The position numbers and the translations under genes are program-made. From the NCBI GenBank assembly GCA_965222225.1, contig CBDCTK010000002.1, forward strand, positions 2,688,001 through 2,752,000: a DNA stretch of 64,000 nt, read 5' to 3'. Origin of the DNA: Candidatus Poribacteria bacterium (GTDB lineage Bacteria > Poribacteria > WGA-4E > JAJDTR01). Positions 4,208 to 58,405 of the stretch are shown one piece after another (within the stretch, counting starts at the first letter, position 1; each line of letters begins with the position of its first letter). Below the pieces are notes generated by a model. That model was given only the letters and a program-made list of their open reading frames with translations, searched no databases and was not told the DNA's origin.

Positions 4208-4621
4208 GATCAAGCGACTGAATAAGGAGTGCGATAGTAAATCCCTCAAGCGACTGATTAGGGAGCGATCAAAGGAATGAATAATGACTGCGATAGAGTT
4301 CCCATGGTAAATCCCTCAAGCGACCAATCAACTGAACGAATAGCGAATGCGATAGCAACTCTTACAAGTCGGGAATCGGAACGGATCTCTATCGCCCTGA
4401 GAGATCTATCGCATTCGCTCATTTGATTTATGCGGTCGGTTGATCGGTTTCTTCGTTGGATCTTCGTGGATTCTGTAGGAGCGATCTCCGAATCGCGAAC
4501 ATCACCGAATTGCGCCGAATTGGGAATCGGAACGAATCTCTATCGCAGTCGCTGTCCGCTCCCTTGATCCCTCACTATCCGATCGGTTGATCGTTATCCA
4601 CTCGATTGATCTCATTTGATC
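4208..4621. repeat. Cluster of ~37-nt GA-mismatch hairpin micro-elements (both orientations) mixed with REP-like hairpins
   Basis: For example GATCAAgcgactgaataaggagtGCGATAGtaaatccc at 4208; nested and truncated copies; REP GTAGGAGCGATCTCCGAATCGCGA at 4475. Confidence 0.85.
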
Positions 4622-4805
4622 GTTCAACCCAACCTACATGGCTGCCCTTTCGCTTGACGGGGAGATCCACCGCTCATAGAATAGACGTCATCCTTCCCGA
4701 GCTAACCCAATGCTTAGAAAGGAGAGCGGAAGATACCTCAACGACGAGCAGACGATAAGCAGACTTAACGACAATGGCTAGTTCTGAATGAGGGGGGCAC
4801 ACCAA

Positions 4806-5777
4806 ATGTCTAGCAAGATGCGAAGGATTCGCTGGATTGACGAGCAGATCCGAGCGAACCGATATCCAAACGCTCATAAAGTCAAGGAGAAGTTTGAACT
4901 CCGCAGCACTCGGATCGTCTACGAAGACAGGAGCTATATGGTAAATGAACTTCATGCGCCTATCAAATATAGCAGAAACAAAGAGGGATGGTATTACACG
5001 GTCCCAACCTATTTTCTTCCGGCAATAATGCTGAAGAGGGAGGAGGTCGCCGCTTTTTTCTTGGGAGAGGAGTTATTCAAGCGCTATCTGGGCACCCCCT
5101 TTGAGACGCCGCTCCGGCTCGCACTCGAAAAGATAACACAGCATTTGCCGGAGCATGTAGGCGACGCCGCGCAACGGGACAATTCCGCGTTTGCTTTCAC
5201 GGGCGGCAGCAGAGCGATAATCGATCCTGAACTATTGATAGAACTCAACGAGGCTATCCTTTCAAAACGTTCGGTTGAAATGGAGTATTATTCGGCAAGC
5301 AGCGGTCAAACGAACACGCGCACGGTTGATCCGTATCACCTCCATAACATTCACGGCGACTGGTATCTAATCGCCTATTGCCACACACGACGCGAGCCTC
5401 GCGATTTTCTTATCAGCCGCATCAGATCGCATAAACGCCTACTATCTACGTTCCAGATACTCCCGAGTTTTTCTCTTGATGGCTACTTGGCTAAAGGATT
5501 CCTCGCCGAGCGGGCGGTAGAGCCCGATGATGTTGTGATAAAGTTTGACGAGTATCAGGCGCGTTGGATAAGGGAACGGCTATGGCACTCAAGTCAGCAG
5601 GTGGAGGAGTTGCCGTCCGGTGGATTGATATTTCGCCTGAGAGTCGGTGGATTGGGCGAAGTAAAGCGGTGGGTCATGGGATATGGAACGCATGCGGAAG
5701 TTCTTGAGCCTGAAAGCCTTCGCCGTGAAATCGGGGACGAAGTGAAAAAAATGGCGGAAATCTACGATAAAAAGTAG
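4806..5777 (+). CDS. WYL-domain transcriptional regulator (HTH-WYL-WCX)
   Basis: N-terminal HTH, RTVDPYHL...WYLIAYCH...RDFLISRI, C-terminal WVMGYG..AEVLEPESLR; lies directly upstream of the cas operon. Confidence 0.93.
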   Translation: MSSKMRRIRWIDEQIRANRYPNAHKVKEKFELRSTRIVYEDRSYMVNELHAPIKYSRNKEGWYYTVPTYFLPAIMLKREEVAAFFLGEELFKRYLGTPFETPLRLALEKITQHLPEHVGDAAQRDNSAFAFTGGSRAIIDPELLIELNEAILSKRSVEMEYYSASSGQTNTRTVDPYHLHNIHGDWYLIAYCHTRREPRDFLISRIRSHKRLLSTFQILPSFSLDGYLAKGFLAERAVEPDDVVIKFDEYQARWIRERLWHSSQQVEELPSGGLIFRLRVGGLGEVKRWVMGYGTHAEVLEPESLRREIGDEVKKMAEIYDKK

Positions 5778-6040
5778 AGTGCGTATATATTGCACTCTGG
5801 GATGGTATAATAGCGGGAGATTGAGTCAAGAAACGAGTTTTTTGGAAGACCTCGGTTTCTTCGGTATTCGCTTGTCTGTTTCTCGGTAAAATTGTATCGG
5901 TGGAGAGTTGGATTTCGGATATATGAAGCAAAACGAGAACCTCGAATGCAATCCGAATTCTAGGCTTTATTCGTAATTTTCAGTTCAACCCAACCTACGG
6001 CATGATGCAGTTTTTCTTATTATTTCACTTCACACGGATA

Positions 6041-6180
6041 GCGATCAGGATTTACTATGGGAGTTCTATCAAGACTTTCTATCGGGATTTACTATCGCAC
6101 TCATTAGCCATTCGCTTGATCCCTCATTATCCACTCGGTTGAGGGATTTGCTATCGCGCTCCCTATCCGGTCGCTTGATC
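6041..6180 (-). repeat. Cluster of hairpin micro-elements upstream of cas6
   Basis: Three reverse-oriented units (CTATCGC-N17-TTGATC or truncated) plus orphan tails. Confidence 0.85.
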
Positions 6181-6225
6181 GCGGATGAAAAGCAGGCAAT
6201 TTGATTTTCGATCGAGGATAAAATA

Positions 6226-7164
6226 ATGACACAACTTCAAAACTTTCGACTGGCGCGCTACCGACTGACGCTGACGGCGTTGTCAACGATTACGATGCCG
6301 CCTTACGCCGGCTCGACGCTGCGGGGCGGGTTCGGTCATGCCTTCCGAAAGATGGTGTGCACTCAGGGACCAATCGACTGCCGGGACTGCACGCTCAACG
6401 CGGTCTGCCCCTATCCGTACATCTTCGAGACGGCGCCGTTTGAGGGGGCGCAGCAGTTGCGAACCTACGGCGATGTGCCGAGACCGTTTGTCATTGATCC
6501 GTTGGATACGCGGGGCGAATACCGCAGAGGCGAATCGTTCTCGTTTCAACTCACGCTCATCGGGCGCGCTATCGATTATCTCCCCTATTTTTTGGTTAGC
6601 TTCCGCGAACTGGGGGAAATGGGGATTGGCAAGGGACGCGGGCGATTCCAGTTGGCGCATGTCCGCACGGATGACGGGGAATCAATCTACGACGGCGATA
6701 CGCAGATGGTGCACAATCTCGATAACGCTCGGAGTTTCGACGATATCCAACGGGAAACGGAATCACAAAAGACGGACGAGTTGACGCTGCGGCTGCTCAC
6801 GCCGACACGCATCACGCACGAAGGGGCGCTGACGGATCAACTGCCGTTTCACGTGTTCTGGCGTAGGCTCATCGGACGGATCTCGGCGTTGGCGTATTTC
6901 CACTGCGGCGAATCGTTGGAGATGGATTTCAAGGGGCTAATCGAAAAGGCGACGAGTGTCGAGATGACGGATTCGACGCTGCGCTGGAAGGATTGGACGC
7001 GGTATTCGTCTCGGCAGGACCGGAAGATGCAGCTCGGGGGGTTGGTGGGGCACGCCACGTATGCCGGGGATTTGGAGGCGTTCGTTCCGTTCGCGGCGTT
7101 GGGCGCGTATCTGCATGTGGGGAAGAATGCGACGTTTGGGTTGGGGAAGTATAGGGTGGAGTGA
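6226..7164 (+). CDS. cas6: CRISPR pre-crRNA endoribonuclease Cas6
   Basis: GSTLRGGFGHAF, CxxC..C..CPY, and C-terminal G-rich loop HVGKNATFGLG. Confidence 0.92.
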   Translation: MTQLQNFRLARYRLTLTALSTITMPPYAGSTLRGGFGHAFRKMVCTQGPIDCRDCTLNAVCPYPYIFETAPFEGAQQLRTYGDVPRPFVIDPLDTRGEYRRGESFSFQLTLIGRAIDYLPYFLVSFRELGEMGIGKGRGRFQLAHVRTDDGESIYDGDTQMVHNLDNARSFDDIQRETESQKTDELTLRLLTPTRITHEGALTDQLPFHVFWRRLIGRISALAYFHCGESLEMDFKGLIEKATSVEMTDSTLRWKDWTRYSSRQDRKMQLGGLVGHATYAGDLEAFVPFAALGAYLHVGKNATFGLGKYRVE

Positions 7165-7173
7165 GGTTTTGTA

Positions 7174-9615
7174 ATGTCTAATTTTGAGAGAGACGAACAG
7201 TATTGGGATAGCCACTTTAAGAACATGTTTGGCGAAGTATTTGTTCCCTTTGAGTTTCAACGCAAGGTAGCAGAACATCTTCTAAGCGGACGAAATGTGA
7301 TTTTACAAGCCCCAACAGGAGCTGGCAAAACGAAAGCCGCTTTGTTTCCGTACTTGTTGGCTCAACAGGAAAATATACAATTTCCTCGAAAGTTGATTTA
7401 CACTACTCCTATGCGAGTCTTGGCAAAGAACTTTCACACCGATTTCAAAGAATCACCAATAGGGCAACAGACGTGCCTCAAAGCGGAAATCCAGACGGGT
7501 GAAAATCAAGATGACCGTCAATTTCGTAGCGACCTGATTTTCACGACTATCGATCAGGTGTTGAGTAGTTTTCTTAACATCCCGTACGCGCTGGGGTTGC
7601 GTCAAGGTAACGTCAACGCTGGCGCAGTCGTCGGCGCGTATTTAGTTTTTGATGAATTTCACTTATTCGATCCTGATACCTCGTTGGGAACTGTGATTGA
7701 AATCCTGAAGATGCTCAACGGTATCACGCCGTTTTTACTAATGACTGCCACTTTTTCAGAGGTGCTTCTTGAGCGTTTGAGCGAATACTTTAACGCGGAA
7801 ATCGTGCCAGTGACAGAGGCTGAACTTAAACAAATCCCTTCTCAGCAAGGAAAACGCCGTGAGTATCGGGTTAGCGGGGGAACACTTTCGGAGAACGTAG
7901 ACACGATTATTGCGCAACATCAACAACGCAGTATCATTATCTGCAATACGGTGAAACGGGCTCAGAATATGTTTCAATCACTGCAGAGCAGTTCGCAGCG
8001 AGGTACTGATACGGAAGTATTACTTTTACACTCCCGTTTTCTGAAGGAACACCGAAAAGCCAAAGAGGACATGATACGCTGTCGTTTCAAACGAGACGCG
8101 GGACTCGACGATGTAATTTTGGTTGCGACGCAAGTGATTGAAGTTGGGCTAGACATTAGCTGTGAGAATCTGCACACAGAACTGGCTCCCGCAAGCGCAA
8201 TTTTACAGCGCGCGGGGCGGTGCGCGCGGTTTGAAAACGAATCTGGAACAGTGACAATCTATCCTATTCCACCTACGACCAACGGTTCACCAAATTATGC
8301 CCCTTATGATAAAGAAACTTGTGAAGCCACGATGGCGGCATTTCAACACCGAAACGGAGGTGTGCTAGGCTTTGTAGCAGAGCAAGAGGTTGTCAACGAA
8401 GTCCACCGCGAAAGCGATGAAAAAATTTTGGCAGGTATTGAGACACGCCCAATACGCAGTCGTATATCAGAAGCGATTTCTGGACAGGAACTAGGTCTTG
8501 CCCGTGAATTGATTCGCAAGGATGACTCGCGTATGTTGCTCGTACATGATGAACCCGAAACACTTGATAAGCCGTTTCGCGTTGAAGGTTTCAGCCTATA
8601 TCGCGGCACACTGTTTGGAGTGTGGGATGAGCTTCAACAGGCGGCGCAAGAAAAGGAGCTGGGTTGGTCTCTGAAGTATCCTAAGGAAATGGAAGACAAC
8701 TCGCCAAACAGTCGTACTACCATTGCCTATGAGTGGCATGAGGCAAAAGAAAAGAAAGACTTAGGTATTTCTCCACTGTTTGTAGTGCATCCAAAACTGG
8801 TTAAATACAATACCGAGATAGGTTTCTGTCTTGAAGCAGGGACGACACCTTGTCCACTAAGCGTACCTGACGATGAAACCACGCAAGAAGCTGACTGGGG
8901 CAAAGGCTACTATCGCGAGACATACACCGAACATATCCAACACCTGTTGAATGCATATCAATCTGGTCTAGCGACTGAACTAGATTACGCCGCCGCGCGG
9001 CTTGAACAGAAGTTGGAGGCATCTGAAGGCGCCGTCGATCGGGCAGTAAGGCTCTGCATTGCCCTCCATGATGTCGGGAAACTGACGGTTGGTTGGCAAG
9101 AATGGGCGCACAAATGGCAAAAAGAAATTGGTGAACCTGTCGATGAAAATTACATGGCGGCGCATACCGATTATGACCGTAGCAATCTTGCCATACGCGA
9201 AATAGAAAAGCAATTCCGCGTCAAAGTCAAACGGCCAGGACATGCTGTTGAAAGTGTTTGGGCGGTTGCACCACTGCTAGCAAGAGTCTTAGGCAAAGAA
9301 CAGAAAAATTTGGCGGAAGCCTGTTTCACTGCTATTGGACGACACCATGCACCGCGCGCAAAGGACTGTTCACCCTACACCCTGCACCCTTATGCGCCAT
9401 CTGAGATCGAAACGGTTCTAAAGAAGATAGGAAGTTTAGGGCAGGAGACTCAACGACACTTCGAATCCATCTGTAAGCACAAGGAACCTACAAAGCCTTT
9501 TTCCCATTTTGTCCAGCCGTCTAACACGCTTGCACTACTAACCTATTTCCTGATTGTGCGCGCTCTACGGCTTGCTGACCAAGAAGCAACCTCAAAAGTT
9601 AGCAGAAGGGAGTAA
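7174..9615 (+). CDS. cas3: Cas3 helicase with C-terminal HD nuclease domain
   Basis: APTGAGKT, DEFH, TAT, QRAGRCAR helicase motifs; C-terminal EHI...LHDVGK...HH...LADQ HD domain. Confidence 0.93.
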   Translation: MSNFERDEQYWDSHFKNMFGEVFVPFEFQRKVAEHLLSGRNVILQAPTGAGKTKAALFPYLLAQQENIQFPRKLIYTTPMRVLAKNFHTDFKESPIGQQTCLKAEIQTGENQDDRQFRSDLIFTTIDQVLSSFLNIPYALGLRQGNVNAGAVVGAYLVFDEFHLFDPDTSLGTVIEILKMLNGITPFLLMTATFSEVLLERLSEYFNAEIVPVTEAELKQIPSQQGKRREYRVSGGTLSENVDTIIAQHQQRSIIICNTVKRAQNMFQSLQSSSQRGTDTEVLLLHSRFLKEHRKAKEDMIRCRFKRDAGLDDVILVATQVIEVGLDISCENLHTELAPASAILQRAGRCARFENESGTVTIYPIPPTTNGSPNYAPYDKETCEATMAAFQHRNGGVLGFVAEQEVVNEVHRESDEKILAGIETRPIRSRISEAISGQELGLARELIRKDDSRMLLVHDEPETLDKPFRVEGFSLYRGTLFGVWDELQQAAQEKELGWSLKYPKEMEDNSPNSRTTIAYEWHEAKEKKDLGISPLFVVHPKLVKYNTEIGFCLEAGTTPCPLSVPDDETTQEADWGKGYYRETYTEHIQHLLNAYQSGLATELDYAAARLEQKLEASEGAVDRAVRLCIALHDVGKLTVGWQEWAHKWQKEIGEPVDENYMAAHTDYDRSNLAIREIEKQFRVKVKRPGHAVESVWAVAPLLARVLGKEQKNLAEACFTAIGRHHAPRAKDCSPYTLHPYAPSEIETVLKKIGSLGQETQRHFESICKHKEPTKPFSHFVQPSNTLALLTYFLIVRALRLADQEATSKVSRRE

Positions 9616-9621
9616 AAACCG

Positions 9622-11415
9622 ATGTACCAACAGACTTATTTCGTTGATAAGCCGACAGGCACATTTGCCGATGTTTGTTCAGCTTTCGGATTGGCAACTG
9701 TCCTAGACGAATTCTTACGACGTGCTCTCGGTGAACACAGTTTTCGCACTGTCAAAATAATGGATCAGGGGACGACGTACGCGATTGAACTCACCCCCAT
9801 AATGCAAGAAGAATGGGTCGAAAGTCCAAATTTCTTTTCCCCTATTCCCTTCATCAAGACAGGGAAAAATAGTGCAACGATGCCAGAGGAAATTTACAAG
9901 ATTGAATACGACGAAGAGAAACAGATTTACGATGAATATAGAGAAGCCCGTCGAATTCTGGGGCAAACGATTCATCGCGGCGGAAGCGAGAGCCAAGGCG
10001 ATGCCGCTTTACCGGACAAACCAAAACCCAACTATCCGGTTTGGCAGAAAATCAACATGATGTCGGGGATCAGTTCTTACAATGCTGCTGTGGGCAACTG
10101 GTTTGAAGCTCGTGGGGAATTCGCAGAGCTTCTCCATCTTCTTCTTGCACTTCACGCCACCACGCCTAATCCGGTTTCAGCCTGTGAGCAAGAATGGAAA
10201 AAACTCAAAAAGGCGGGGAATCTTTCTGGAAAAGACCGCTTGAATATGCTGCAAATATTCAACCCGAGTACCGGAAAAGGCCAAAACGCCACAAAAGCAA
10301 ACAGCTTGTCGATGGGTAACGTAAGCAACTTTTGGTTGTGCGAATACATAAAGATGGTCGGTTTCTACCGTTGCGCGTTACCACGATTCGTGTCAGTGAA
10401 ACCTGGCCAGCCACCGACGGACCGAAAAACCTTCGCATTAGCGCCTATCAACATGACACTTGCGGCGCACAACGACATTTTCAATAGCTTCCGTGACACA
10501 GTGAGAAGCAATTACGCAATAAAGTCTGACATCTTTGCGGCGCTCAACTACACACAATGCTTTCTGAAATACTCCGAAGAAGCTCAGGAATCTGATGACT
10601 TATGGGGTGACGGTCCCCATGACTTTGTCGCAGGAATGCACACCGCCTTTTATAAAGATCTCGGCAACTCGTCCGCCGTGATGAACCTTTCCTTTATCAA
10701 TCTACCACGCTGGATGAACGTTCAAGATATAGATGATGTGCAGATATACCGCGAGATGATAGCGGAACACCTGCAAATCATAGGAAGTTTAGAAGAGGAA
10801 CGGAGTGAAGGCTTTCAACTGCTCCAACACTATCGGGACTTCCTATCCGGTCACGATTTCACGGCGTTCTTTGAGTTCACAGCGAAATACCCAAACTACC
10901 TGCTTAATGCCTTAGCGAAGGAACATTTCTGGGTTAAGCCGTTGAGCGCAACTAATTTGAGGAGGTTACTCATGAGAAACGAAAAAAAACTCACGCCAAT
11001 TATCAAAAGCGAGGGTTTTCAAAATATCGCTAGAGCCATCCGCCAAAGCACCGTGACGCTACAGTATATGGCGAGAAGCGGAAACCCCCCGTATGACATT
11101 CGATATGGACTCGGACAAGAATTGCGACGCAAGGCGAACTATCCGGACGAGTTCATTCAGGAATTAGGTGATTTTCTACACTCTTTCAACGCGGAAAATG
11201 CCCGCGTAGCGGAAGTTTCATCCGAAAGGGACCGGCGGTTCCGGCGGAAAAGCGTCCGTGTAGATGACATCACCGAAATCGTTCAATTGATTGATGAACA
11301 CGGGGCCCAAACCGTCTGTCATTTGCTGCTAGCTTTCGGATACGCTTCTACCAGCCACGATGAGGCGCCGACAGACGATGCCACCTCCCACACCCAACAA
11401 GGAGAAGGAAAATGA
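9622..11415 (+). CDS. cas8: Type I Cascade large subunit (Cas8-like)
   Basis: 597 aa between cas3 and cas7; contains FNPSTGKGQN; assignment is mainly positional. Confidence 0.7.
   Translation: MYQQTYFVDKPTGTFADVCSAFGLATVLDEFLRRALGEHSFRTVKIMDQGTTYAIELTPIMQEEWVESPNFFSPIPFIKTGKNSATMPEEIYKIEYDEEKQIYDEYREARRILGQTIHRGGSESQGDAALPDKPKPNYPVWQKINMMSGISSYNAAVGNWFEARGEFAELLHLLLALHATTPNPVSACEQEWKKLKKAGNLSGKDRLNMLQIFNPSTGKGQNATKANSLSMGNVSNFWLCEYIKMVGFYRCALPRFVSVKPGQPPTDRKTFALAPINMTLAAHNDIFNSFRDTVRSNYAIKSDIFAALNYTQCFLKYSEEAQESDDLWGDGPHDFVAGMHTAFYKDLGNSSAVMNLSFINLPRWMNVQDIDDVQIYREMIAEHLQIIGSLEEERSEGFQLLQHYRDFLSGHDFTAFFEFTAKYPNYLLNALAKEHFWVKPLSATNLRRLLMRNEKKLTPIIKSEGFQNIARAIRQSTVTLQYMARSGNPPYDIRYGLGQELRRKANYPDEFIQELGDFLHSFNAENARVAEVSSERDRRFRRKSVRVDDITEIVQLIDEHGAQTVCHLLLAFGYASTSHDEAPTDDATSHTQQGEGK
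10972..11415 (+). CDS. Putative internally translated small subunit (Cas11), 147 aa, in frame with cas8
   Basis: GAGGAGG at 10959-10965 precedes the in-frame ATG 10972 (MRNEKKLTPII); predicted helical C-terminal region. Confidence 0.6.
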   Translation: MRNEKKLTPIIKSEGFQNIARAIRQSTVTLQYMARSGNPPYDIRYGLGQELRRKANYPDEFIQELGDFLHSFNAENARVAEVSSERDRRFRRKSVRVDDITEIVQLIDEHGAQTVCHLLLAFGYASTSHDEAPTDDATSHTQQGEGK

Positions 11416-12410
11416 GCGATAACAAAGCGGTTTATTCCCTCACCATCTGTGGTCAAGCCACAATTGATATGCACTCCCTCAACAACGAAGGAAGCGAGGG
11501 AAACCAGATTGCAACCCGAATGGTCAACGTCTACGATGAGGCGGGAAAACTCGCTGCCGTGAACGCAATTTCAGGCGATATGTTCAAACACATTCAAGCC
11601 GAACATCTGTTTCATCTGAGCAGAAATAGTGGACTGAAGCTATGTTCGGGGTGCCAAAGATTCAGTGCAAACCGTATCCTTGATGACGAGACTTTTGTCG
11701 ACAGCTTCGAAAAAAACACCCCCGACGAGGAGATAGTTGCAAAGATGGTGCAAATGTGTGCCATTGATGACGTTGAAGGCATTCTTGTTACAGCGAAGAA
11801 CAAATCCACGCCGCGCAAGTCGATTGTGGAGTTTGGTTGGGTCGTCGGCATACCCGAGTTGAACACGACAGATAACTACTTCCATGTCAAGTATGTGTCA
11901 GATAGTGGAGCACAAAACGCAGATGACAGCGACAGCGCTGATGGCGGTGGAGCTAATCTTGGACAGAACATCTTCCATCGTCCCGCGAATTCGGGGATTT
12001 ACGCAGTTGTCGCAGGGGTTGAGGTTTCACGGCTCGGTTTCAACGATATAAGTCAGGCTTATGCCATTGATGACCAGGAGCGAAATCAACGATACAAAAC
12101 GTTGATTGAGAGCCTACTTTGTACTTTTGTCGATCCAAACGGAGCCATGCGAAGTGCTCAGAATCCCCATCTCGTTAACTTTGAAGGGGTTGTCAGTCTA
12201 AGCACTAAGATTTTGCCCGCGCCAACAATCAGCCCGCTTAACGCCGAATATAAGGACGAAATCAGACGTGTTGCAGACGCGCTCAATCAGATTGAGACGG
12301 ACGCAATTGAACGCCACGAGTTTGACTCACTCGGCGGTTACGCTGAAGTGATGGCAAACCTTGCCAATACAACTGTACCTTTCAAAATCAGTTATAACGG
12401 AGGGAACTAA
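11412..12410 (+). CDS. cas7: Cas7 backbone subunit, DevR/Csa2-like
   Basis: MHSLNNEGSEGN, AISGDMFKH and RKSIVEFGW motifs. Confidence 0.88.
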   Translation: MSDNKAVYSLTICGQATIDMHSLNNEGSEGNQIATRMVNVYDEAGKLAAVNAISGDMFKHIQAEHLFHLSRNSGLKLCSGCQRFSANRILDDETFVDSFEKNTPDEEIVAKMVQMCAIDDVEGILVTAKNKSTPRKSIVEFGWVVGIPELNTTDNYFHVKYVSDSGAQNADDSDSADGGGANLGQNIFHRPANSGIYAVVAGVEVSRLGFNDISQAYAIDDQERNQRYKTLIESLLCTFVDPNGAMRSAQNPHLVNFEGVVSLSTKILPAPTISPLNAEYKDEIRRVADALNQIETDAIERHEFDSLGGYAEVMANLANTTVPFKISYNGGN

Positions 12411-12411
12411 A

Positions 12412-13113: not shown

Positions 13114-13123
13114 TTTTCTGTAT

Positions 13124-13200
13124 TAACGATGTGCTTCCATATACGCCCGCAAAGATATGGCGTGCTTAGGAATCACGACGTGGGAGTCTATCCGAGGCGT
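13124..13200 (-). pseudogene. Internally deleted BrnA-antitoxin remnant
   Basis: Reads ...VVIPKHAISLRAYMEAHR*, a fusion of the ISLR and LRAYMEA parts of the brnA copy at 14119-14473. Confidence 0.55.
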
Positions 13201-13211
13201 TGTAGGGGCAA

Positions 13212-14000: not shown

Positions 14001-14118
14001 AGAATTCTCCTGGTGTTTGGTGGGTCACTAGCAGAGTAAATGTATAGTGCGCCAATCCTTAGGTTGTGTTATGGTTTCCAATCTTCAGCATGCGCTAACG
14101 GAATGAAAGGAGCAATTC

Positions 14119-14473
14119 CTAACGCTGCGCTTCCATGTACGCCCGCAAAACGGCGTTCATGCGGGTCTGGTAACCTCGACCTTGGGATTTAAACCACGCG
14201 AGTACGTCACTATCAGGGATTTCTATCGCACTCCTTATTCAGTCGCTTGATCGCAGGGAGATGGCGTGTTTGGGTTGGGGTATCACGACTTGGGCGTCTT
14301 TCCAGAATGCTTCATCGGTGGGTTGGGCGTCGGGGTCGGATGCCGCTGCTTCATCAATCTCTGCCTCGGTCACTGTGGAATTTCTATCGCACTCGTTATC
14401 CACTCGTTTGATCTGTTTGTGTGTCGTCGGGGACGTTATCGGAACTGTTGTCAGAGTAGGTGGTAACAGACAT
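14119..14473 (-). pseudogene. brnA: BrnA-family antitoxin interrupted by two 37-nt hairpin micro-elements
   Basis: Removing 14377-14413 and 14216-14252 gives MSVTT...DTQT/TVTEAEIDEAAASDPDAQPTDEAFWKDAQVVIPQPKHAISLR/DSDVLAWFKSQGRGYQTRMNAVLRAYMEAQR*. Confidence 0.82.
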
Positions 14474-14757: not shown

Positions 14758-15002
14758 AATTTGGGAGCCTCTGAATCAATCTTTGTCACGGAAATTACCT
14801 CACTGTAGGAGCGATCAAGTAAGCGAATAGCGCACGCGATAGAGATCTTCTCCAGGTCGCGATTCCCTACTAAATTATATCCGAAATTCAAGGTTCACGC
14901 AAGGATTTAGACCGCCCCGTATGCATGTCTCTGAAAGAAACCGAGTTTTGTGGAAAAAACTCGGTTTCGTTGAACGTCCGTTACTCCTGTAGGAGGAAGA
15001 AA

Positions 15003-16112: not shown

Positions 16113-16263
16113 GGGGCGGGAAACCGATCAACCGAGTGGATAACGAGCAGGATAAACTATCGCCTTCGCTATTCGCTCAGTTGATCGATAGAGATCCTTT
16201 TTTTCTTGAAAACTCGGTTTCTGCTGACCACTAGTCACTGAGCACTGGCAACTGTGTTTTGCC

Positions 16264-17499: not shown

Positions 17500-19958
17500 G
17501 TAGCAACCATTGCCGCGATGAAAAGCGGACTGAAAGTGACAAACGTTGGATAATATGTTATACTATACTAGCAACGTAGCAACCATTGCCGCGATGAAAA
17601 GCGGACTGAAAGTATCACGCATCATGGTAGGGATTTTTCTTTGTGCGTGTAGCAACCATTGCCGCGATGAAAAGCGGACTGAAAGGATACAAAGAAGAGC
17701 CAACCAAAAGAGACATCGTCCTCGTAGCAACCATTGCCCCGACGAAAAGGGGACTGAAAGGTCGAAGTGGGACGGATATATATTTGATTGGTTGAGTAGC
17801 AACCATTGCCCCGATGAAAAGGATCAAGCGACCGGACAGGGAGCGCGATAGCGTTCCGTCAAATGACCGATTAGGGAGCGCGATAGCAAGCATGTAAGAG
17901 TTATCTGGGCGCCAACAGCGGCACCTAGCTCACGTAGTTACCTTTGCTCGGATGAAAAGGAATGTCTTCAAGTGGGACAAGAAGATTTCTATCGCATTCG
18001 CTATTCGCTCATTTGATCCCCGACGAAAAGCGGACTGAAAGTGCTCAACGCGGATGTGCATATCGCTATTGAGCGCAGTAGCAACCATTGCCGCGATGAA
18101 AAGCGATCAAGCGAACGGATAGTGAGTGCGATAGAGATTCCATAGAGTTCCTTCAAGCGACCGGATAGGGAGCGATCAAAGGAATGAATAATGACTGCGA
18201 TAGAGATTTCATAGAGTTACCTCAAATGGAGTTACCTCAAGCGACCGATTAGGCAGTAAGGCTTTCTATCGCATTCGCTAATCGCTCATTTGATCCCCGA
18301 TGAAAAGCGATCAAGCGAACGGATAGTGAGTGCGATAGTAAATCCCGTGCGATAGAGATTCCATAGAGTTCCTTCAAGCGACCGATCAAAGGAATGAATA
18401 ATGACTGCGATAGAGTTCCGTCAAATGACCGATTAGGGAGCAGGGCTTTCTATCGCCTTCGCTAATCGCTCAGTTGATCCCCGATGAAAAGGATCAAGCG
18501 ACACCGGACAGGGAGCGATCAAAGGAATGAATAATGACTGCGATAGAGTTCCCATAGAGTTTCCGCAAGCGACCGATTAGGGAGCGGGCTTTTCTATCGC
18601 CTTCGCTATTCGCTCAGTTGATCCCCGACGAAAAGGATCAAGCGAACGGACAGTGAGCGCGATAGCAAGCATGTAAGAGTAATCTGGGCGCCAACAGCGG
18701 CACCTAGCTCACGTAGTTACCTTTGCTCGGATGAAAAGGAATGTCTTCAAGTGGGACAAGAAGATTTCTATCGCCTTCCCTAATCGCTCAGTATTCGTTC
18801 GGTTGATTGCTATTCGCTTGCTTGAGGGATAATCTATCGCGCTCCTTATTCAGTCGCTTGATCCCCGATGAAAAGGATCAAGGGAGCGAATAGCGACCGC
18901 GATAGCAAGCATGTAAGAGTTATCTAGGCGCCAACAGTGGCACCTAACTCACGTAGTTACCTTTGCTCGGATGAAAAGGAATGTCTTCAAGTGGGACAAG
19001 AAGATTTCTATCGCCTTCGCTAATCGCTCAGTATTCGTTCGGTTGATCGCTATTCGCTTGCTTGAGGGATAATCTATCGCGCTCCTTATTCAGTCGCTTG
19101 ATCCCCGATGAAAAGGGGACTGAAAGAGCGGCTAGTACCCTGCCGACCCGTAGGCTGCTTTTGTAGCAACCATTGCCCCGATGAAAAGCGGACTGAAAGG
19201 CCACTTGCAGTCAATGAGTAAGCATAGAAAGCCAGTAGCAACCATTGCCGCGATGAAAAGGGGACTGAAAGTCGTGATATGCGGCGCGGCTGGGATATTA
19301 CAAGCTGTAGCAACCATTGCCGCGATGAAAAGCGATCAAGCGAACGGATAGTGAGTGCGATAGTAAATCCCGTGCGATAGAGATTCCATAGAGTTCCTTC
19401 AAGCGACCGGACAGGAAGCAATCAAAGGAATGAATAATGACTGCGATAGAGATTTCATAGAGTTACCTCAAATGGAGTTCCCTCAAGCGACCGATTAGGC
19501 AGTAAGGCTTTCTATCGCATTCGCTAATCGCTCATTTGATCCCCGACGAAAAGGGGACTGAAAGGCCCAACCGTTAATCTCTTTAATCGGCTTAACGCCA
19601 GTAGCAACCATTGCCCCGACGAAAAGGGGACTGAAAGCGCGCAGCATCAACGATCTCCAGAGCGAGAAGTTGCGTAGCAACCATTGCCGCGATGAAAAGC
19701 GGACTGAAAGTCCATAAAAAGTTAGATGATTCCATACCAAAATTATAGTAGCAACCATTGCCCCGACGAAAAGGATCAAGGGAGCGAATAGCGACCGCGA
19801 TAGCAAGCATGTAAGAGTAATCTGGTCGCCAACAGCGGCACCTAGCTCACGTAGTTACCTTTGCTCGGATGAAAAGGAATGTCTTCAAGTGGGACAAGAA
19901 GATTTCTATCGCCTTCGCTAATCGCTCAGTTGATCCCCGACGAAAAGGGGGCTGAATG
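17500..19958 (+). CRISPR. CRISPR array, 37-bp repeat GTAGCAACCATTGCCSCGAYGAAAAGSGGACTGAAAG; 12 repeat positions, 11 spacers (35-39 bp); 4 repeats interrupted
   Basis: Repeats start at 17500, 17576, 17649, 17724, 17796*, 18078*, 19163, 19235, 19307*, 19601, 19674 and 19748* (* = interrupted); the last has a degenerate 3' end. Confidence 0.95.
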
Positions 19959-20839: not shown

Positions 20840-20985
20840 GATCAAGCGACCGATCAAAGGAATGAATAATGACTGCGATAGAGTTCCCTCAAGCGAGCGA
20901 TTAGCGAGTGCGATAGAGATCTTACTGCGATAGAAAATCCCGATAGTAGTTCCTGATAGAGCTCCCATGCGATAGTAGAGCCCGG
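20840..20985 (+). repeat. Nested hairpin micro-elements with stacked GCGATAG-tail remnants
   Basis: Three units followed by repeated (GCG)ATAG-tail fragments. Confidence 0.8.
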
Positions 20986-21487: not shown

Positions 21488-21784
21488 GATCCTGTTTGAA
21501 AAGTACAGTTTGTAGGGTGCGATCAAAGGAATGAATAATGACTGCGATAGAGATCCCCTGCGATCAACTGAGTGGATAACGAAGGCGATAGTCTTGTAGG
21601 GTGGGATCAAGGGAGCGAATAGCGATCAAGCGACTGAATAAGGAGCACGATAGAAATCCCGTGCGATAGAGATCCTACAGGTATGTAGCAGCCAACAATT
21701 ATGTAGCAGCCAACAATGAAAACATGAAAAAACTTTCTACAAATGACCAAAAATGGCTTTGCCACCGATTATTCAAACAGGTTC
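21488..21784. mobile_element. MITE (GA(G/T/A)CCTGTTTGAA TIRs, TTA duplication) carrying micro-elements
   Basis: tta-GATCCTGTTTGAA...TTCAAACAGGTTC-tta; internal sequence shared with 46220-46440. Confidence 0.75.
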
Positions 21785-25266: not shown

Positions 25267-25608
25267 GAGGCATGGGTGAGTGGAGGTCGCGATCGGGAGA
25301 GGGATCTCTATCGCGCTCATTATTCATTCGCTTGATCGCAGGGGATCTCTATCGCAGTCATTATTCATTCCTTTGATCGCACCCTACAAGATTATTATTC
25401 AAACAGGTTCTTAGTCTCGGTTGAGATCACAAATCGCTGGACACGATCACGGATTTATAATAGAATACAACTTCGGGATTGCCTCGTGTCTGAGATGGAC
25501 TATTGTGTTTTCAAAGCATTGATTTGCGCGCGGGATAAGGGCGAGAGGAAGCAAATCTGCCGTTGTAATTTTTGCATTCATTAGATATATCAATTGTTGA
25601 GGAGGAAT

Positions 25609-29148: not shown

Positions 29149-29301
29149 AAATGTTGGAGATTTGGCGATCCCCGATGGAAATCAACGATTTGATGATCGT
29201 CGATCGCATCCTCCGAGAAGTGGTGGGCGGGGGATTCCTATCGCAGTCACTATCCGTTGGCTTGATCTCCGCTGTATCTTCAAATCACGAAAGGAATCAC
29301 C

Positions 29302-30123: not shown

Positions 30124-30396
30124 GGCTCACGCAAATGGTCGCGTAAGGGCAGTTTATCCCCCGTTTCGACGCTACGATCCCCGTTGGAGCGATCTCCCGG
30201 TCGCGACTGCCTATGCGCGTGCGGGGAAAGATGCCCCGCCTACGGGGCTGGTGGGAGTTCTCTGGGAGCTCTATCGCGCAAAGATCTCTATCGCATTCGC
30301 TAATCGCTCATTTGATCCTAATCAGTCGGTTGATCGCTCACTATCCGTTCGCTTGATCCCACCCTACAAATATACTACAAATGTACAAAACCGAGC

Positions 30397-33167: not shown

Positions 33168-33554
33168 GAGCCTGTTTGAAAATTCATTTTTGTACACATT
33201 TCGCCTCAAAACCAAGGTTTTCATCAGGGCTCTTGTAGGGTGCGATCAAAGGAATGAATAATGACTGCGATAGAGATCCCCTGCGATCAAAGGAATGAAT
33301 AATGACTGCGATAGAGATCCCCTGCGATCAAGCGAATGAATAATGAGCGATCAAACGAGTGGATAACGAGTGCGATAGAAATCCCATAGAAATCCTACCA
33401 GCCTCTAAAAGCCCCAGAGGAGATCAAGCGAACGATCAACTGAGTGGATAACGAAGGCGATAGAAGATCCCATAGTGAGTGCGATAGGAATCCCACAGAT
33501 TATAGCACTCAACAGCTTCAAAATGGCTTTGCCGCCGATTATTCAAACAGGCTC
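33168..33554. mobile_element. MITE with GAGCCTGTTTGAA TIRs and TTA target duplication, loaded with micro-elements
   Basis: tta-GAGCCTGTTTGAA...TTCAAACAGGCTC-tta; no ORF. Confidence 0.82.
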
Positions 33555-39756: not shown

Positions 39757-39920
39757 CAGGTTCGACAACGTGGGCGGTGTAGGATGCGTGATGGAATCAC
39801 TACGGATTCTATCGCACTCGCTCTTCGTTCGTTTGATCGTTTTATATCTTTGTAGGAAGCATGACCGTCAGACAGAAATTGACACGGTAGCGGCAACCTG
39901 GCGCGGAAAATCTCAACACT

Positions 39921-44596: not shown

Positions 44597-45397
44597 ATGA
44601 CGACTGAATCCATCAACAGCCATAGGCATCTGATACAGACGCTTGACGAAATTCTGAATGACCTCGAATTTGATGCTGATCATCCTATCAAAATCGTGCG
44701 AATGGCGGACGGTAGGGAGGTTATCACTGTGCGGCCAAACCCGTTTACCGTGTCGCGCATGTATACCTCCGGGCGCCCTGATGGGCGGAAGCCCCACGGG
44801 AAAAATTCGTACTACAACTACATCCAAAGTCGGATGGAGGACTATCAAAACTCGCACGGCAGCGACGAGGGTTTTGAGTTAACCCAAGAAGAGTGGCGAA
44901 CGCTGTTTGACGAATCGTATGACCGATATACCCGCTACCTGCTTTGCGCGGGCATTAAACGCTGGCATGATGTGAAGCGCGACACCGACACTAACTTGGC
45001 GGTGTCGAACTTAGCGAAAAAATTTGCCTCGTCCGAAACTGCGTGGCAGAGCTATCAGTACAAGGGGTATATGCTCATGATGAACAGCATCGCGTCCGCG
45101 GAATTGAGTCTGATGGAGGACAATCGGGCGGAGGCGTTAAGCCAAGTCAATGAGGGGATTCAACGGATTGGTCAGTTTTGCGGAGAGTGTTTGCGCGAGA
45201 ACCATGGCGAAGCCGAGAATATCACCCGCGACCGTTATTTGGCCAATCTAATCGAGTTTCGGACAGATCTTGAGTCTGTGGAGGCGGGATTGGAGGAGGA
45301 ACACGGGGATGATCGTCAGGAGGAAGGTGACGATGGAGATGGCACGGACATCTTAGAGGAACTCGAACAGTTACTCGGGGAGAGATCGAACGAGTGA
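44597..45397 (+). CDS. Hypothetical protein (GRPDGxxPHG motif)
   Basis: 268-aa ORF with an acidic tail; function not recognised. Confidence 0.7.
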   Translation: MTTESINSHRHLIQTLDEILNDLEFDADHPIKIVRMADGREVITVRPNPFTVSRMYTSGRPDGRKPHGKNSYYNYIQSRMEDYQNSHGSDEGFELTQEEWRTLFDESYDRYTRYLLCAGIKRWHDVKRDTDTNLAVSNLAKKFASSETAWQSYQYKGYMLMMNSIASAELSLMEDNRAEALSQVNEGIQRIGQFCGECLRENHGEAENITRDRYLANLIEFRTDLESVEAGLEEEHGDDRQEEGDDGDGTDILEELEQLLGERSNE

Positions 45398-45541
45398 ATT
45401 GCGAGTGCGATAGAACTCCCGTAGGAGTCTTTTCCCTGTCGCGAGTAAAACTCGTTCCTACAGAGAATCTGTTGTAGTGAATTGCACTAGTAAAAAACCG
45501 AACTACATAACGCCTAATTGACTTATCTGTAGGTGTGATGT

Positions 45542-46219: not shown

Positions 46220-46440
46220 GAGCCTGTTTGAATAATCGGTGGCAAAGCAATTTTTAGTCATTTGCCGGAAGTTTTTTCATTAGTTGGCTGCTACATACCT
46301 GTAGGATCTCTATCGCAGTCGCTATTCGCTTCCTTGATCCCACTCTGGGGCTTTAGATGCTGGTGCGCAGGGGATCTCTATCGCAGTCATTATTCATTCC
46401 TTTGATCGCACCCTACAAACTGTACTTTTCAAACAGGCTC
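46220..46440. mobile_element. MITE with GAGCCTGTTTGAA TIRs and TAA duplication, containing two micro-elements
   Basis: taa-GAGCCTGTTTGAA...TTCAAACAGGCTC-taa; inverted relative to 21488-21784. Confidence 0.82.
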
Positions 46441-48635: not shown

Positions 48636-48931
48636 CAAACAGGTCGCTCAAGCTAACGTAGTTGAAAGTCTAACGGTTTGCGGTAAGGCAGTCTAGTACT
48701 AAATCAAGCGACAAAACAGGGAGCGATCAACTGAGCGAATAGTGAAGGCGATAGAAGATCCCGATAGAACTCCCCTCCACATTTCGACTTCCTGTTGCCG
48801 CGTAGGTCCTACGTTTGAAATATAACAACTAACTCACAAATTGGACATAGAAATTTTCGGATAAACGCACATTCCGTAATCTGTGTCATTGCCACGGCCA
48901 TCGGTCAACTAACAAGGAGAAGGTAGAATTC

Positions 48932-49987: not shown

Positions 49988-50266
49988 GCGAATTGGAATA
50001 TTGAAGTTTATCTTCCGAGGCGGCTAGGAAGAGTGGGATTGGAAGGCTGGAAGCGTGGAAGCTTGGAAGATTCTCCTTGCACGTCACCCTTGAATGTAAA
50101 GTTTATTTTCTAGTATTTACGCAGTTGAACGCTCAAGTCCTCCTAGTTCGATGAATTTACTGTAGGGAATAACGTGCGATTTCTATGGGAATTCTATCGC
50201 CCTCCCTGTTCAGTCGGTTGATCGTAATATTTTTACAATTTTGCCTTAGAAAACGGAGTTTACTTT

Positions 50267-55758: not shown

Positions 55759-56294
55759 TCTGTATCTGCTCTCGGTCTACATCTCCACGCAGGCGAAGTT
55801 GACATTCGAATTCATCCTGACCTTAATCAATCCTTAGTCCGGAAGGCTCGCATCGCACCTCAGGCCTATAGGGTGGACAATCGTTGACTCTATACTTTGT
55901 ATTGGGATTTGGATGGTGGACTGTAGGAGCGATCAAACTAGTGGATAACGAGTGATCAACCGACTGAATAAGGAGGGCGATAGAGCTCCCATAGAGATCC
56001 CTCTCCCAATCGCGACATTTGTTCAACCGTTTGGCGTTACCTGTATTATGTCTACTCTCAATCACACCTTTCGAAGTTATGAAGGATGCGCACTTGGATG
56101 GTGGGCGCTGCCCACCATCCAAAGGCTCTGTATTCGTGATCGTTCGTGTCCCGTCCCATCTTCCATCCTTCCGCCTTTTCCCAGCATCCCCGACCCTAAG
56201 AGATTTTACTTGGATCAGTGCGAAAGAAGTGGTAAAATGGATCTAGATTACGTAAGCTATACCAAACGCCGGAATCAAACAATCGAGGACACCC

Positions 56295-57488
56295 ATGAAA
56301 GTGGACCGAGAAAAATTTATCAATGATGGTTTCCTTATCATACGGAACTGCATTCCTCCGGAACAGCTAGACCAGCTCCGTGATAGTTTTGAAGTATTGG
56401 TTGAGCGTCAAAAAGCCAACTGGGCTCGTGACCGAGCGCCCGATGATCCGCCGGGCGGCGCATGGGAGACCAGCGGGCAGCCGCGATTATCGGGTTATGA
56501 AAAACTCATCGACTCCACGACTGCCGACACCGTCGAGATCTGCCTGCATGAGAACACCATGGGTGTGTGTAAACAACTGATGCGTGCTGCCGAGGCGGGA
56601 GCACAGAATAAGATGTTTATGTGCAGTCCTGTGCGCGATCATGGACCTGCGAGTTGGCATCGAGATATTCACCCGGTAGACCAAGCGCCGCTGCGGGGAT
56701 TGCAAATGGACCTTCTGGAAAATGCGCCCGGTTATCTCCAGTGGAACATTCCGCTCTACGAGGATAACGTGTTGTGGACGGTGCCCGGCAGCCATCGCAG
56801 AGGCAACACCGAAGCCGAGAACAAACAACTGAGTGAGAATTCACGGGCGCCGCTGCCCAATAGCATTCCGGTGGAGATGAAAGCGGGCGATGGCGTCGTT
56901 TACACTAACACCATCTTTCATTGGGGCAGCAACTACAGCACCAAACTGCGGCGGACAATTCACTTGGGCTACCGCTCTTTCGGCGGTCCAATTTTTCCTT
57001 ATGTATGCCACTTTCACCGCGATCTGGATTTTACCCGACACCTTTCTCCGGATGCCCGAGCCGTATTTGAACGCCACGCCCAATTATACCGCGAAGAATG
57101 CGACGTGATTGAATCCACCTTCCGTGCAATCATCGACAAGAATGCGTATGCCTTCCGCGAAGGTCTTGCAGTAATCCATCCCGGCGAGCCCGGACGGATA
57201 GTGTGCCTTATACTTCTGTCCAAAGTGGCATACAAAATGCGGTTTGCATCGCATCCTGCAAGAGCGGCTTTCGGCGGCGACATCTCGCAAGATATAGATC
57301 TCGCACCACGCTTTTCACCGGCTGAACGTGATATACTCTGGGGACGATTTGCAACACTGGATGAAACGATTCAATCGCACAAAGAGGAATATATCCCGGG
57401 CTTTCAATCCGGACCGATGCGCTACTTATTCGAAGAGATGCCGACGAATTTCGACGTGGAAGACTTCATTGCAAGTTGGGAGACGTAA
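56295..57488 (+). CDS. PhyH-family Fe(II)/2OG dioxygenase
   Basis: WHRD, VPGSH, FHWG...RRTIH. Confidence 0.88.
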   Translation: MKVDREKFINDGFLIIRNCIPPEQLDQLRDSFEVLVERQKANWARDRAPDDPPGGAWETSGQPRLSGYEKLIDSTTADTVEICLHENTMGVCKQLMRAAEAGAQNKMFMCSPVRDHGPASWHRDIHPVDQAPLRGLQMDLLENAPGYLQWNIPLYEDNVLWTVPGSHRRGNTEAENKQLSENSRAPLPNSIPVEMKAGDGVVYTNTIFHWGSNYSTKLRRTIHLGYRSFGGPIFPYVCHFHRDLDFTRHLSPDARAVFERHAQLYREECDVIESTFRAIIDKNAYAFREGLAVIHPGEPGRIVCLILLSKVAYKMRFASHPARAAFGGDISQDIDLAPRFSPAERDILWGRFATLDETIQSHKEEYIPGFQSGPMRYLFEEMPTNFDVEDFIASWET

Positions 57489-57544
57489 TCGGGAGTTGCT
57501 TGACGTTTGTACGGAAGAACTCGGAGGTTTGCAGGAGGGGTACC

Positions 57545-58252
57545 ATGAATCTTGACGATGCCAAACTTCGACTGGATGAGGAAGGGCACTACATACTGGA
57601 AGATTTGCTCGATCCGCATGAAGCGGAACGATTGGATTCGGCAGCACGGTGCTTGATGGAACCTAGAGCCGAACCGAATCAAGGATATTTGAGCATGGAG
57701 GACTCCCTCAATACCATTCCCGGTCTGGCGCCGCTCTGCACCCACCCGGCAATCCTTGAGCTGGCTGAATCGGTGCTTGGAGAAAAGTTCATTCTGGCGA
57801 ACACGGTCGCCATGAAGTGGTGCCGACCCGGCGCCGGCGCTCGCGGATTGCATGCGGATTGGCCACTCAACGCGGGTATTCCCCAACCTTGGCCCGTGCT
57901 GTCAACAGGATTTCAGGCGTTCTGGATGCTCACGGATTTCACGCCGGATAACGGCGCAACCACCATCGTCCCTTTCAGCCACCATAGCAGGCGCCCTCCG
58001 ACGCAATCAGAATATCCGCACGAAATGTCCCTCATCGGGAAGAAGGGGTCCGTGGCTGTGTTTGTCAATGGCACCTGGCATCGCAGCGGCGCGAATACGA
58101 CGACAGATCAGCACCGGATGGCAGCCAACATGTTCTACATCCCCGGTTTCCTGAATCGACCGAGAATCGGTTGGCCCCTCGTGAAACGCGAGATTTATGA
58201 CCAGTTTTCGCCTCGCCTGCAAGAGTTGCTTGAGCGGTCTGTCGAATGGTGA
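57545..58252 (+). CDS. PhyH-family dioxygenase
   Basis: LHAD, DFTPDNGAT..VPFSH, WHRSGAN. Confidence 0.9.
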   Translation: MNLDDAKLRLDEEGHYILEDLLDPHEAERLDSAARCLMEPRAEPNQGYLSMEDSLNTIPGLAPLCTHPAILELAESVLGEKFILANTVAMKWCRPGAGARGLHADWPLNAGIPQPWPVLSTGFQAFWMLTDFTPDNGATTIVPFSHHSRRPPTQSEYPHEMSLIGKKGSVAVFVNGTWHRSGANTTTDQHRMAANMFYIPGFLNRPRIGWPLVKREIYDQFSPRLQELLERSVEW

Positions 58253-58292
58253 TTCTTACGAATCCGCAACCTTCTCCTACGGCGGTAGGAGC

Positions 58293-58405
58293 GATCAAAC
58301 GCGTGGACAACGATCAAGGAAACGATTAGCTGAGATCAAGCGAGTGGATAGCGAGCAGGATTTACTATAGGAGTTCTATCGCACTCATTATTCATTCGCT
58401 TGATC
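58293..58405. repeat. Convergent micro-element cluster inside a GTAGGAG...CTCCTAC palindrome
   Basis: Forward partial units then CTATCGC-N17-TTGATC, flanked by inverted GTAGGAG/CTCCTAC. Confidence 0.8.

Follow-up and report, generated by a model that had tools for sequence, protein, structure and literature searches.

A 64,000-nt stretch of the genome of a Candidatus Poribacteria bacterium (assembly GCA_965222225.1, contig CBDCTK010000002.1, positions 2,688,001 to 2,752,000), referred to below as the window, carries many copies of a very small structured mobile repeat, here found in a new phylum. The copies follow the pattern GATCAA-ab-GA-cd-GRNYA-d'c'-GA-b'a'-GCGATAG, where the lower-case letters are variable dinucleotides and the primed ones their partners. 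The moving unit is 34-36 nt long and is inserted after an unpaired G or GA without target duplication. The strand that bears the GA letters, called the top strand here, is the one that folds. The unit, its target rule and its structural code can all be defined exactly. The element is probably a non-autonomous insertion module whose spread relies on the folding of a single DNA strand.

The inserted unit and its target sites

Empty sites were searched for by joining 12 letters of the left flank to 12 letters of the right flank at all plausible boundaries and looking the result up in the genome of the window (5.70 Mb, two contigs, G000). An empty paralogous site was found for 156 of the 749 exact copies in this genome. 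Of these 156, 54 are clean inserts of 33-37 nt; the element itself is the host of 30, and the other 24 were assigned to different hosts (three of the 24 are, by eye, also the element's own copies). The 30 self-inserts lie within the loop (cd-GA|ATA-d'c') or after the 3' GA. The 24 inserts in other hosts are 35 nt (15), 34 nt (5), 36 nt (3) or 37 nt (1) long, and 12 have no boundary ambiguity (0 nt) and the others no more than 3 nt, which shows that the target is not duplicated. The inserted unit reads (A)TCAA-17-GCGATAG-ARATC(C)(C); the target often supplies the G or GA with which GATCAA begins. The tail belongs to the insert. The first-pass annotation of the window, made from the sequence alone, had listed the commonest tails correctly (genome-wide these are AGATCCC, AAATCCC, TAAATCC and AGTTCCC) and had erred in placing them, as a variable tail, outside the unit.

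The target is loose. The last host bases before the 24 inserts are GCG (8), CGA (5), GGG (3), ATC (3) and others (5), and GTAGG stands just upstream in 19 of the 24. The joints fall in the tips or loops of hairpins of the host repeats, or within 0-4 nt of them. The hosts are repetitive extragenic palindromes (REPs) tagged with GTAG, the repeats of a CRISPR (clustered regularly interspaced short palindromic repeats) array and the element's own loops. One host, GTAGGAGCGA|TCTCC..., has 41 uninterrupted copies in the genome; further hosts are GTAGGGAATAACGA|TCGTTATTCCC, GTAGGGTGCG|CACTGCG|CACC, GTAGGTCGGG|CTTC... and GTAGGGGCGAGG|TCC.... Furthermore, the repeat downstream of P0001, an IS200-like gene, is interrupted in G000 and in the related genomes G001 and G005, and intact in G002, G009 and G004. 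These clean filled and empty pairs of 34-36 nt within the genome, together with the one orthologous pair, bear out the earlier proposal that a very small unit is mobile.

The fold of the top strand

Counting Watson-Crick and G·T pairs, positions 7/23, 8/22, 11/19 and 12/18 are paired in 96%, 96%, 97% and 97% of the 749 copies, where independence predicts 51-79%, and all four pairs are formed in 654 copies. The mutual information between partners is 0.33-1.04 bits, and that of other position pairs does not exceed 0.16. Within the window, an alignment of 49 copies (42 distinct) was compared with 500 shuffles: 98.6% of the cells pair as against 76.3% after shuffling, a level attained by none of the 500, and the covariation score is 0.667 as against 0.199. 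Sliding the register reduces pairing in this alignment to 45% or less. The covariation claimed in the first-pass annotation is therefore real, and so is its remark that most exceptions are wobbles, as G·T stands 267 times and A·C 23 times in 650 copies. The exchange of the GA/GA block for AA/GC, which it had noticed in the copy at 14813, is present and recurrent, since the 9/21 pair reads A-C in 7 of the 749 copies.

The letters around the GA blocks are restricted as well. Directly 5' of a GA, A never occurs, and directly 3' of it T occurs in at most 1% of copies; the G(RNY)A loop is closed by a pyrimidine-purine pair in 99%. These preferences match the rules for sheared G·A pairs, namely the rule that sheared tandem G·A blocks in DNA stand between a pyrimidine and a purine (pyrimidine-GA-purine; PMC10085684) and the G·A-closed DNA mini-hairpins described in PMC13037366. 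Tolerance of G·T but not of A·C, the rule for the neighbors of GA and the pyrimidine-purine loop closure together mean that one strand folds, the GA-bearing one, in agreement with the strand-specific fold with sheared-type G·A pairs proposed earlier. The family is a natural case of G·A-stabilized DNA hairpins under selection.

Decay of the copies and strand bias

The stems decay together with the anchors, the fixed letters on either side. The share of copies that retain all four pairs is 88.5% with no anchor mismatch (n=650), 80.3% with one (173), 64.3% with two (70) and 52% with three (23), and the share of A·C climbs from 0.9% to 5.4% as the anchors decay. A control on the reversed genome gave no match at up to three anchor mismatches. 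As the stems decay with the anchors, the host does not maintain individual copies. In copies that decay after insertion, the covariation reflects selection for competence to be copied and not a function of each copy for the host; the most likely reading is that it filters which copies go on to be multiplied.

Relative to co-directional flanking genes the element has no preferred sense (235 copies same, 213 opposite). In 511 of 746 copies it is the locally C-rich strand that carries the folding sequence, and in 235 the other, a ratio of about 2:1. Because the copies are clustered, these counts overstate their independence. Genes favor the G-rich strand only 55:45. A bias with respect to replication without a bias with respect to gene sense favors single-stranded DNA over RNA, so that of the two carriers suggested in the first-pass annotation, single-stranded DNA or RNA, the former is the more likely. 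The bias points to replication, and from it we infer a single-stranded DNA intermediate. Loss of copies having the stable strand on the lagging-strand template would also yield the observed bias. The GC skew of the large contig, C2, changes sign often (14 bins), which indicates rearrangements or assembly joins and makes the origin and terminus unreadable.

Copy number and placement in the genome

The pattern scanned was GATCAA-N17-GCGATAG with up to two mismatches, and 100 shuffles of the window served as background. The window contains 55 matches (45 exact, four with one mismatch and six with two); the shuffles gave a mean of 2.00 and a maximum of 6, so that 55 was never reached. The two-mismatch matches at 47082, 48993 and 18492 are likely due to chance or overlap. 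The first-pass annotation had counted dozens of copies at roughly 25 loci. The copies stand, and every coordinate it named was recovered, its 14216 and 14377 being the pattern starts 14223 and 14384 with the tail included and its 25307 being 25308; the loci number about 20.

Extraction of the exact pattern from the entire genome, which the annotation had suggested, gives the 749 copies in 347 variants, the two strands bearing 414 and 335 copies. With a less strict pattern 1160 hairpin modules are counted, which form 654 clusters (363 solitary) and occupy about 0.76% of the genome. Only 10.9% of copy midpoints fall inside stop-to-stop open reading frames of at least 150 aa, which cover 81.4% of the genome, and the non-coding placement described earlier is thus confirmed. 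Among 983 hairpins, 93 are succeeded immediately by another GATCAA, which takes the place of GCGATAG. Modules within 400 bp of each other are same-sense tandems in 406 of 506 pairs; the inverted pairs comprise 82 with the 5' ends outward (+-) and 18 of the reverse kind (-+). Inverted copies bracket genes as 67 oppositely oriented pairs among 185 gene-filled gaps, and the genes are ordinary. The copies are dispersed and in both orientations, and hence are not the regular direct repeats with unique spacers that make up a CRISPR array. Elsewhere in the genome, a tandem array with a 38-nt period at G000:C2:1578410-1578560 consists of at least five units of the form TTGTAGGATCAA-17-GCGATAGTC, the paired stems of which differ from unit to unit.

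Distribution among genomes

A covariance model was built from the 49 window copies and run on 41 genomes of relatives, the window's own included, and then on 151 genomes of the phylum. It matches 15 of the 41. The element is present in all nine genomes of the window's genus (g1), in the one genome of genus g2 (9 matches) and in all four of g4, a genus of another family; none of the ten g3 genomes and none of the seven g6 genomes was matched. Over the phylum the model matches 17 of 151 genomes, with none of 100 in family f2. In a scan of one genome per prokaryote species at least 102 stretches were found, and all 80 among the matches listed belong to Candidatus Poribacteria, not to cyanobacteria, which the richness in GCGATC had suggested. 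Viral contigs gave no matches, plasmids gave no match to a 176-nt query, and a scan of JGI metagenomes gave four single matches; for a pattern of 19 fixed letters, by our own estimate, a few chance matches are expected in so large a collection.

Sporadic signals in g6 and g2 come from fragmented assemblies, where they occur on four contigs only (G133) or on single contigs (strong matches in G010, a single match in G088), and this sporadic presence may be binning contamination. The one-contig genome G072 contains a single real nested cluster with no mobile gene adjoining it. Three Poribacteria chromosomes of 4.7-4.9 Mb have the same 30-nt core followed mostly by TCTT or TTTT and not by AGATCCC. 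Occupancy of orthologous spacers varies between species of one genus. The window stretch is present in 20 public runs from nine studies and in many independent assemblies made by different methods. An adapter or assembly artefact, a possibility raised in the first-pass annotation, is therefore excluded.

Search for the mobilizing enzyme

As stated in the first-pass annotation, the window contains no match to a Y1 HUH nuclease or a reverse transcriptase; the genome's members of both families lie elsewhere. There are five Y1 HUH loci in the genome, two of them broken. P0001 (157 aa, G000:C2:3080258-3080728, homologues L118-L133) is IS200-like, scoring 65.8 bits against a cut-off of 55. Its motif YIKNQEAHH is that of subclass 1.2, which is listed without a REP (Table 1, PMC6006769), and in four genera the gene is flanked by conserved AAAGCCCCNNNNGGGGCGACAGGTG hairpins and not by the element. 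The loci resembling REP-associated tyrosine transposases (RAYTs) carry GTAG REPs of their own. Each Y1 gene examined in the relatives is flanked by a different REP and the element, where present, interrupts those REPs.

None of the five Y1 types matches the distribution of the element (g1 9/9, g4 4/4, g6 0/7). P0001 occurs in g1 9/9, g4 2/4 and g6 7/7; P0002, a RAYT fragment in G000, in 8/9, 2/4 and 4/7; P0003 in 6/9, 2/4 and 6/7; type B in 2/9, 1/4 and 1/7; and P0004 in g1 4/9 and g4 0/4. The host REP GTAGGAGCGATCTCC is spread much more widely than the element (g3 10/10, g6 6/7). The sole RVT_1 match in the genome is an AbiA-type defense reverse transcriptase of 670 aa (G000:C2:4499563-4501572; PADLOC AbiA/DRT, E 4e-76), found in g1 5/9, g4 1/4 and g6 1/7, which is also unlike the element. 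The co-distributed RAYT, HUH enzyme or reverse transcriptase that the earlier annotation had proposed to look for is thus missing among the five Y1 types and the one reverse transcriptase, and no known enzyme accounts for the movement of the element.

Some further features of these genes may be added. At least six GTAG-tagged REP families coexist in the genome; on both strands of the large contig GTAGGAGCGATCTCC occurs 95 times, the GTAGGGTGCGCA type 68 times and the GTAGGCA type 46 times. P0004 is a 247-aa Y1 protein encoded at G000:C2:2563965-2564705 and G005:C1:3780663-3781403. It is 99% identical between the two species, the other compared proteins of which are about 87% identical, and is missing from most of the genus, which suggests a recent transfer. 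The AbiA-type enzyme has in-frame stops in several relatives.

Proposed mechanism and alternative explanations

By combining these observations it is possible to propose how the element might spread. The top strand folds into a mini-hairpin that begins, on the outside, with an ATC/GAT clamp, an AA/GC internal loop and a 2-bp helix that is free to vary. Further inwards, a tandem G·A/A·G block is followed by another 2-bp helix, with a pyrimidine-purine pair on the side of the loop, and by a G(RNY)A loop closed by G·A. A trans-acting protein would read the shape of the hairpin together with the fixed flanks ATCAA and GCGATAG, and would copy or cut out the top strand. This strand would then be joined on the 3' side of a G or GA that is unpaired and lies in or close to the tip of a hairpin, which may be a GTAG-tagged REP, a CRISPR repeat or the element's own loop or GA block. 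No target is duplicated, and repeated insertion would build nested and tandem arrays. Once inserted, the copies are not maintained and decay. The leading guess for the enzyme is an HUH-type nuclease-ligase, although none was found among the Y1 loci of the genome.

Several points weigh against such a module. No mobilizer was found, and for each of the five Y1 HUH loci the cognate REP is another one or is lacking. The boundaries are looser than a site-specific nuclease suggests, shifting between G| and GA| on the 5' side and between ...GATC, ...GATCC and ...GATCCC on the 3' side. Chimeric partial units of 19 and 23 nt exist, with microhomology (GA or GAGYG) at their joints. In IS608-type single-strand transposition the replication-strand rule is reportedly opposite to the bias found here. 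Finally, nearest-neighbor energies do not single out the proposed hairpin in three top strands. DNA parameters give 0, -5.9 (another fold) and -1.8 kcal/mol; with RNA parameters the proposed fold is the minimum for two of the three, with z-scores of 0.28, -2.47 (another fold) and -1.74. Such a failure is consistent with mini-hairpins escaping standard energy models, as noted in PMC13037366.

As an alternative, the element could be an ordinary REP, or a REP doublet (REPIN), or a hitch-hiker on these, cut and joined by a resident RAYT. The five Y1 loci and the many REP families of the genome speak for this, as do the outward orientation of most inverted pairs, the element copies on both sides of P0001 and of the RAYT fragment P0002, and the occurrence of GTAGG, which 198 of 749 copies have on their own strand in the 22 nt upstream (CCTAC in 10). 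The clean inserts, however, contain no GTAG; the tag belongs to the host REP. In the relatives, moreover, the REPs flanking the Y1 genes are different ones into which the element is inserted, and the distribution of no Y1 type fits. A resident RAYT is thus an unlikely agent. About equally unlikely is that no dedicated enzyme exists and that copies come about while the lagging strand is synthesized at stalled hairpins, through template switching or misprocessed flaps; the nascent end would jump to an existing copy at G, GA or GCGATC and return at C, CC or TC. The fuzzy boundaries, short matches between the host and the usual 5' flank, the chimeric units with their joints, the predominance of the top strand on the Okazaki-fragment strand (511/746) and the same-sense tandem neighbors all fit this process. 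A jump guided by 0-2 nt, however, would not produce 20 of 24 other-host inserts of 34 or 35 nt, half of the inserts without a shared letter at the joint, and the tolerance of G·T but not A·C is left unexplained unless the fold itself drives the jump.

High copy number, extragenic placement and strong structural conservation would also be expected if each copy served the host, for instance by binding a protein or as a structured RNA, and were kept in place by selection. But the stems decay with the anchors, there is no orientation bias relative to neighboring genes, copies interrupt CRISPR repeats and REPs, orthologous occupancy differs within the genus, and Rfam has no match in the window, all of which makes a host function improbable. 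Retrotransposition through an RNA copy is the least probable of all. The fold is possible in RNA, as the minimum-energy structures computed with RNA parameters indicate, but the only reverse transcriptase of the genome is the AbiA-type defense enzyme with its different distribution, and the element has neither a sense bias to genes nor an A tail. Possibly, and more doubtfully than the insertion module itself, the family represents a separate "hairpin-into-hairpin" class of mobile DNA. A 35-nt single strand, recognized by its sheared-G·A shape, would then be moved by an enzyme unrelated to the resident RAYT/IS200 proteins or by lagging-strand incorporation. It would be a parasite of REP hairpins and CRISPR repeats that disables arrays, and its mechanism would be common to the small dispersed repeats (SDRs) of Nostoc.

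Copies in the CRISPR array and in transposable elements of the window

A type I CRISPR-Cas locus occupies positions 4788-16112 of the window and encodes a WYL/WCX regulator, Cas6, Cas3 (helicase and HD), a DevR/Csa2 Cas7-like protein and Cas1. The array at 17500-19950 has 37-nt repeats with two stem variants, CCCC/GGGG and CCGC/GCGG; eight repeats are intact and four are broken by composites of the element. Four of the intact ones, at 17500..17760 on the plus strand, are host context, not element. The invaded part (17796..19950, both strands) contains 21 pattern matches, 18 of them exact, in composite inserts of the form E(+)...E(-). Inserts of 209, 1012 and 221 bp interrupt three of the repeats, and a duplicated 12-nt CCCGAYGAAAAG borders each insert on both sides; the fourth broken repeat is the last one, at 19748.

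Part of the spread of the element is passive, inside ordinary MITEs (transposable elements of the miniature inverted-repeat type). The MITE family concerned is 220-390 bp long, has the ends GRKCCTGTTTGAA/TTCAAACAGGYTC and duplicates TTA or TAA; on the large contig the 10-letter motif of the ends was counted 98 and 89 times. The commonest variant of the element (45 copies) is the one carried by the MITE with these ends. Four loci of the window lie in or beside MITEs, two of which are missing as whole units at orthologous sites of relatives. The MITE at 21488..21784 (plus strand; terminal repeats GATCCTGTTTGAA/TTCAAACAGGTTC, TTA duplication; modules 21521, 21562, 21607 and 21624) is absent as a whole from the orthologous site of G003. 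The one at 33168..33554 (plus strand; terminal repeats GAGCCTGTTTGAA/TTCAAACAGGCTC, TTA duplication; modules 33244, 33285, 33326, 33349 and 33434) is missing in G001, G009, G003, G005 and G002. Modules 46310 and 46378 lie in a MITE at 46220..46440 (minus strand), and modules 25308 and 25349 (25301..25410, minus strand) beside a right MITE end at 25398, the only end present there. A DDE transposase gene (DDE_5 / DDE_Tnp_1) lies at 46738-47757, and identical fragments of it occur in at least three other places of the genome, often beside copies of the element.

Of the remaining loci on the plus strand, a nested array at 4208..4362 consists of three modules (4208, 4267 and 4326) and a truncated hairpin module at 4246. 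The AA/GC variant at 14813..14846 is a 34-nt insert in a REP2 host, GTAGGAGCGA|...|TCTCCAGGTCGCGA, of which nine uninterrupted copies exist elsewhere in the genome. Two modules lie at 20852..20923 (20852, exact, and 20887, with a CC-TCAA 5' end), and a decayed module with one anchor mismatch at 45384..45420. Truncated modules are joined to full ones at 48704..48761 (full module 48725) and at 55933..55990 (full module 55954), the latter behind a GTAGGAGC host tag.

On the minus strand, a single module at 4533..4569 has degenerate copies nearby (4400-4620), and two modules (6092 and 6151) at 6085..6180 are upstream of cas6. The modules 14223 and 14384 span 14216..14413 with their tails. The solitary module at 29231..29267 has no counterpart in the orthologous spacers of G001, G009 and G002. 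Module 30288 and the truncated module 30336, at 30281..30356, are inside a REP5-like host. Solitary modules are found at 39802..39838 and 50187..50223, and a degenerate copy with two anchor mismatches at 59234..59263. Two loci involve both strands: at 16126..16186 a minus-strand module (16157) abuts a truncated plus-strand module, and at 58295..58405 truncated plus-strand modules (58295 and 58336) face the minus-strand module 58376.

Comparison with known systems

The closest precedent is found in the small dispersed repeats of the Nostocaceae (SDR4-6, and especially SDR5; Elhai et al. 2008, Genome Res 18:1484). Like the present element, they are very small dispersed repeats regarded as mobile, with precise insertion into a short target and with nesting. 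SDRs are 21-27 nt long, form hairpins and are nested in each other. They differ in that the element belongs to another phylum, the Poribacteria, and has a unit of 34-36 nt in which G·A pairs stand in tandem and the 2-bp stems covary. According to PMC4390886, SDR5 is inserted precisely between letters three and four of GCGATCGC (GCG^AT). This junction is the same as GCG|ATCAA here. In PMC5861425, SDRs are said not to be found outside the Nostocaceae. The first-pass annotation had not recognized the family and had allowed for a prior description. Repeats of the same kind have indeed been described, namely these SDRs. For the family itself, the literature searches found no description of a Poribacteria REP, MITE, REPIN, RAYT or dispersed repeat, and a scan of the window against Rfam at the gathering score gave no matches.

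The element resembles REPs and REPINs in being a short, abundant, extragenic hairpin with strand-specific recognition and frequent inverted pairs in a genome rich in Y1 HUH genes. Unlike them, it lacks a GTAG or CGTC tag, is not found beside a cognate RAYT, is inserted into REPs, has stems of 2+2 bp held by G·A pairs, and has a distribution different from that of every Y1 type. MITEs are similarly non-autonomous, small and abundant, but the module has no terminal inverted repeats beyond GATC and no target duplication, both of which its carrier MITEs have. The earlier statement that the element is unlike classical REPs and MITEs was too strong, given the REP- and RAYT-rich genome, the frequent upstream GTAGG and the carriage by MITEs. 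The module itself lacks the REP tag, the RAYT and the MITE features, and is distinct from CRISPR repeats.

The ends of IS200/IS605 elements and of their miniature derivatives (PATEs) are likewise recognized as folded single-strand hairpins and have a replication-strand bias. Their insertion is 3' of a fixed short target without duplication; the element, too, is inserted without duplication, into a loose target. The element differs from them in having one hairpin in place of distinct left and right ends, a total length of about 35 nt, no matching TnpA and a bias on what is, going by the reported IS608 rule, the opposite strand. It shares with attC sites the shape of one folded DNA strand, paired positions that are free to vary and fixed outer boxes; the attC boxes, of the AAC/GTT type, are absent from the element, and attC sites are longer. 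DNA mini-hairpins of the GCGAAGC type and CGAG blocks have sheared G·A beside pyrimidine-purine closing pairs and a compact, very stable single-strand fold, as described in PMC13037366 and PMC10085684. Those are structural motifs and not dispersed mobile families, and their loops are shorter by one or two letters than the G-NNN-A loop of the element.

Since the Nostoc SDRs it has been a question how repeats can move that are much smaller than any transposon end, and the Poribacteria family provides a cleaner handle on it. It offers more than 1000 copies per genome, an exact unit and target rule, and a structural code sharp enough for binding and cleavage tests. Two genera rich in the element stand beside sister genera free of it, which makes a comparison of gene content possible. 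REP hairpins and CRISPR repeats act as landing pads for the element, and in the type I array of the window 4 of the 12 repeats have been broken by it.

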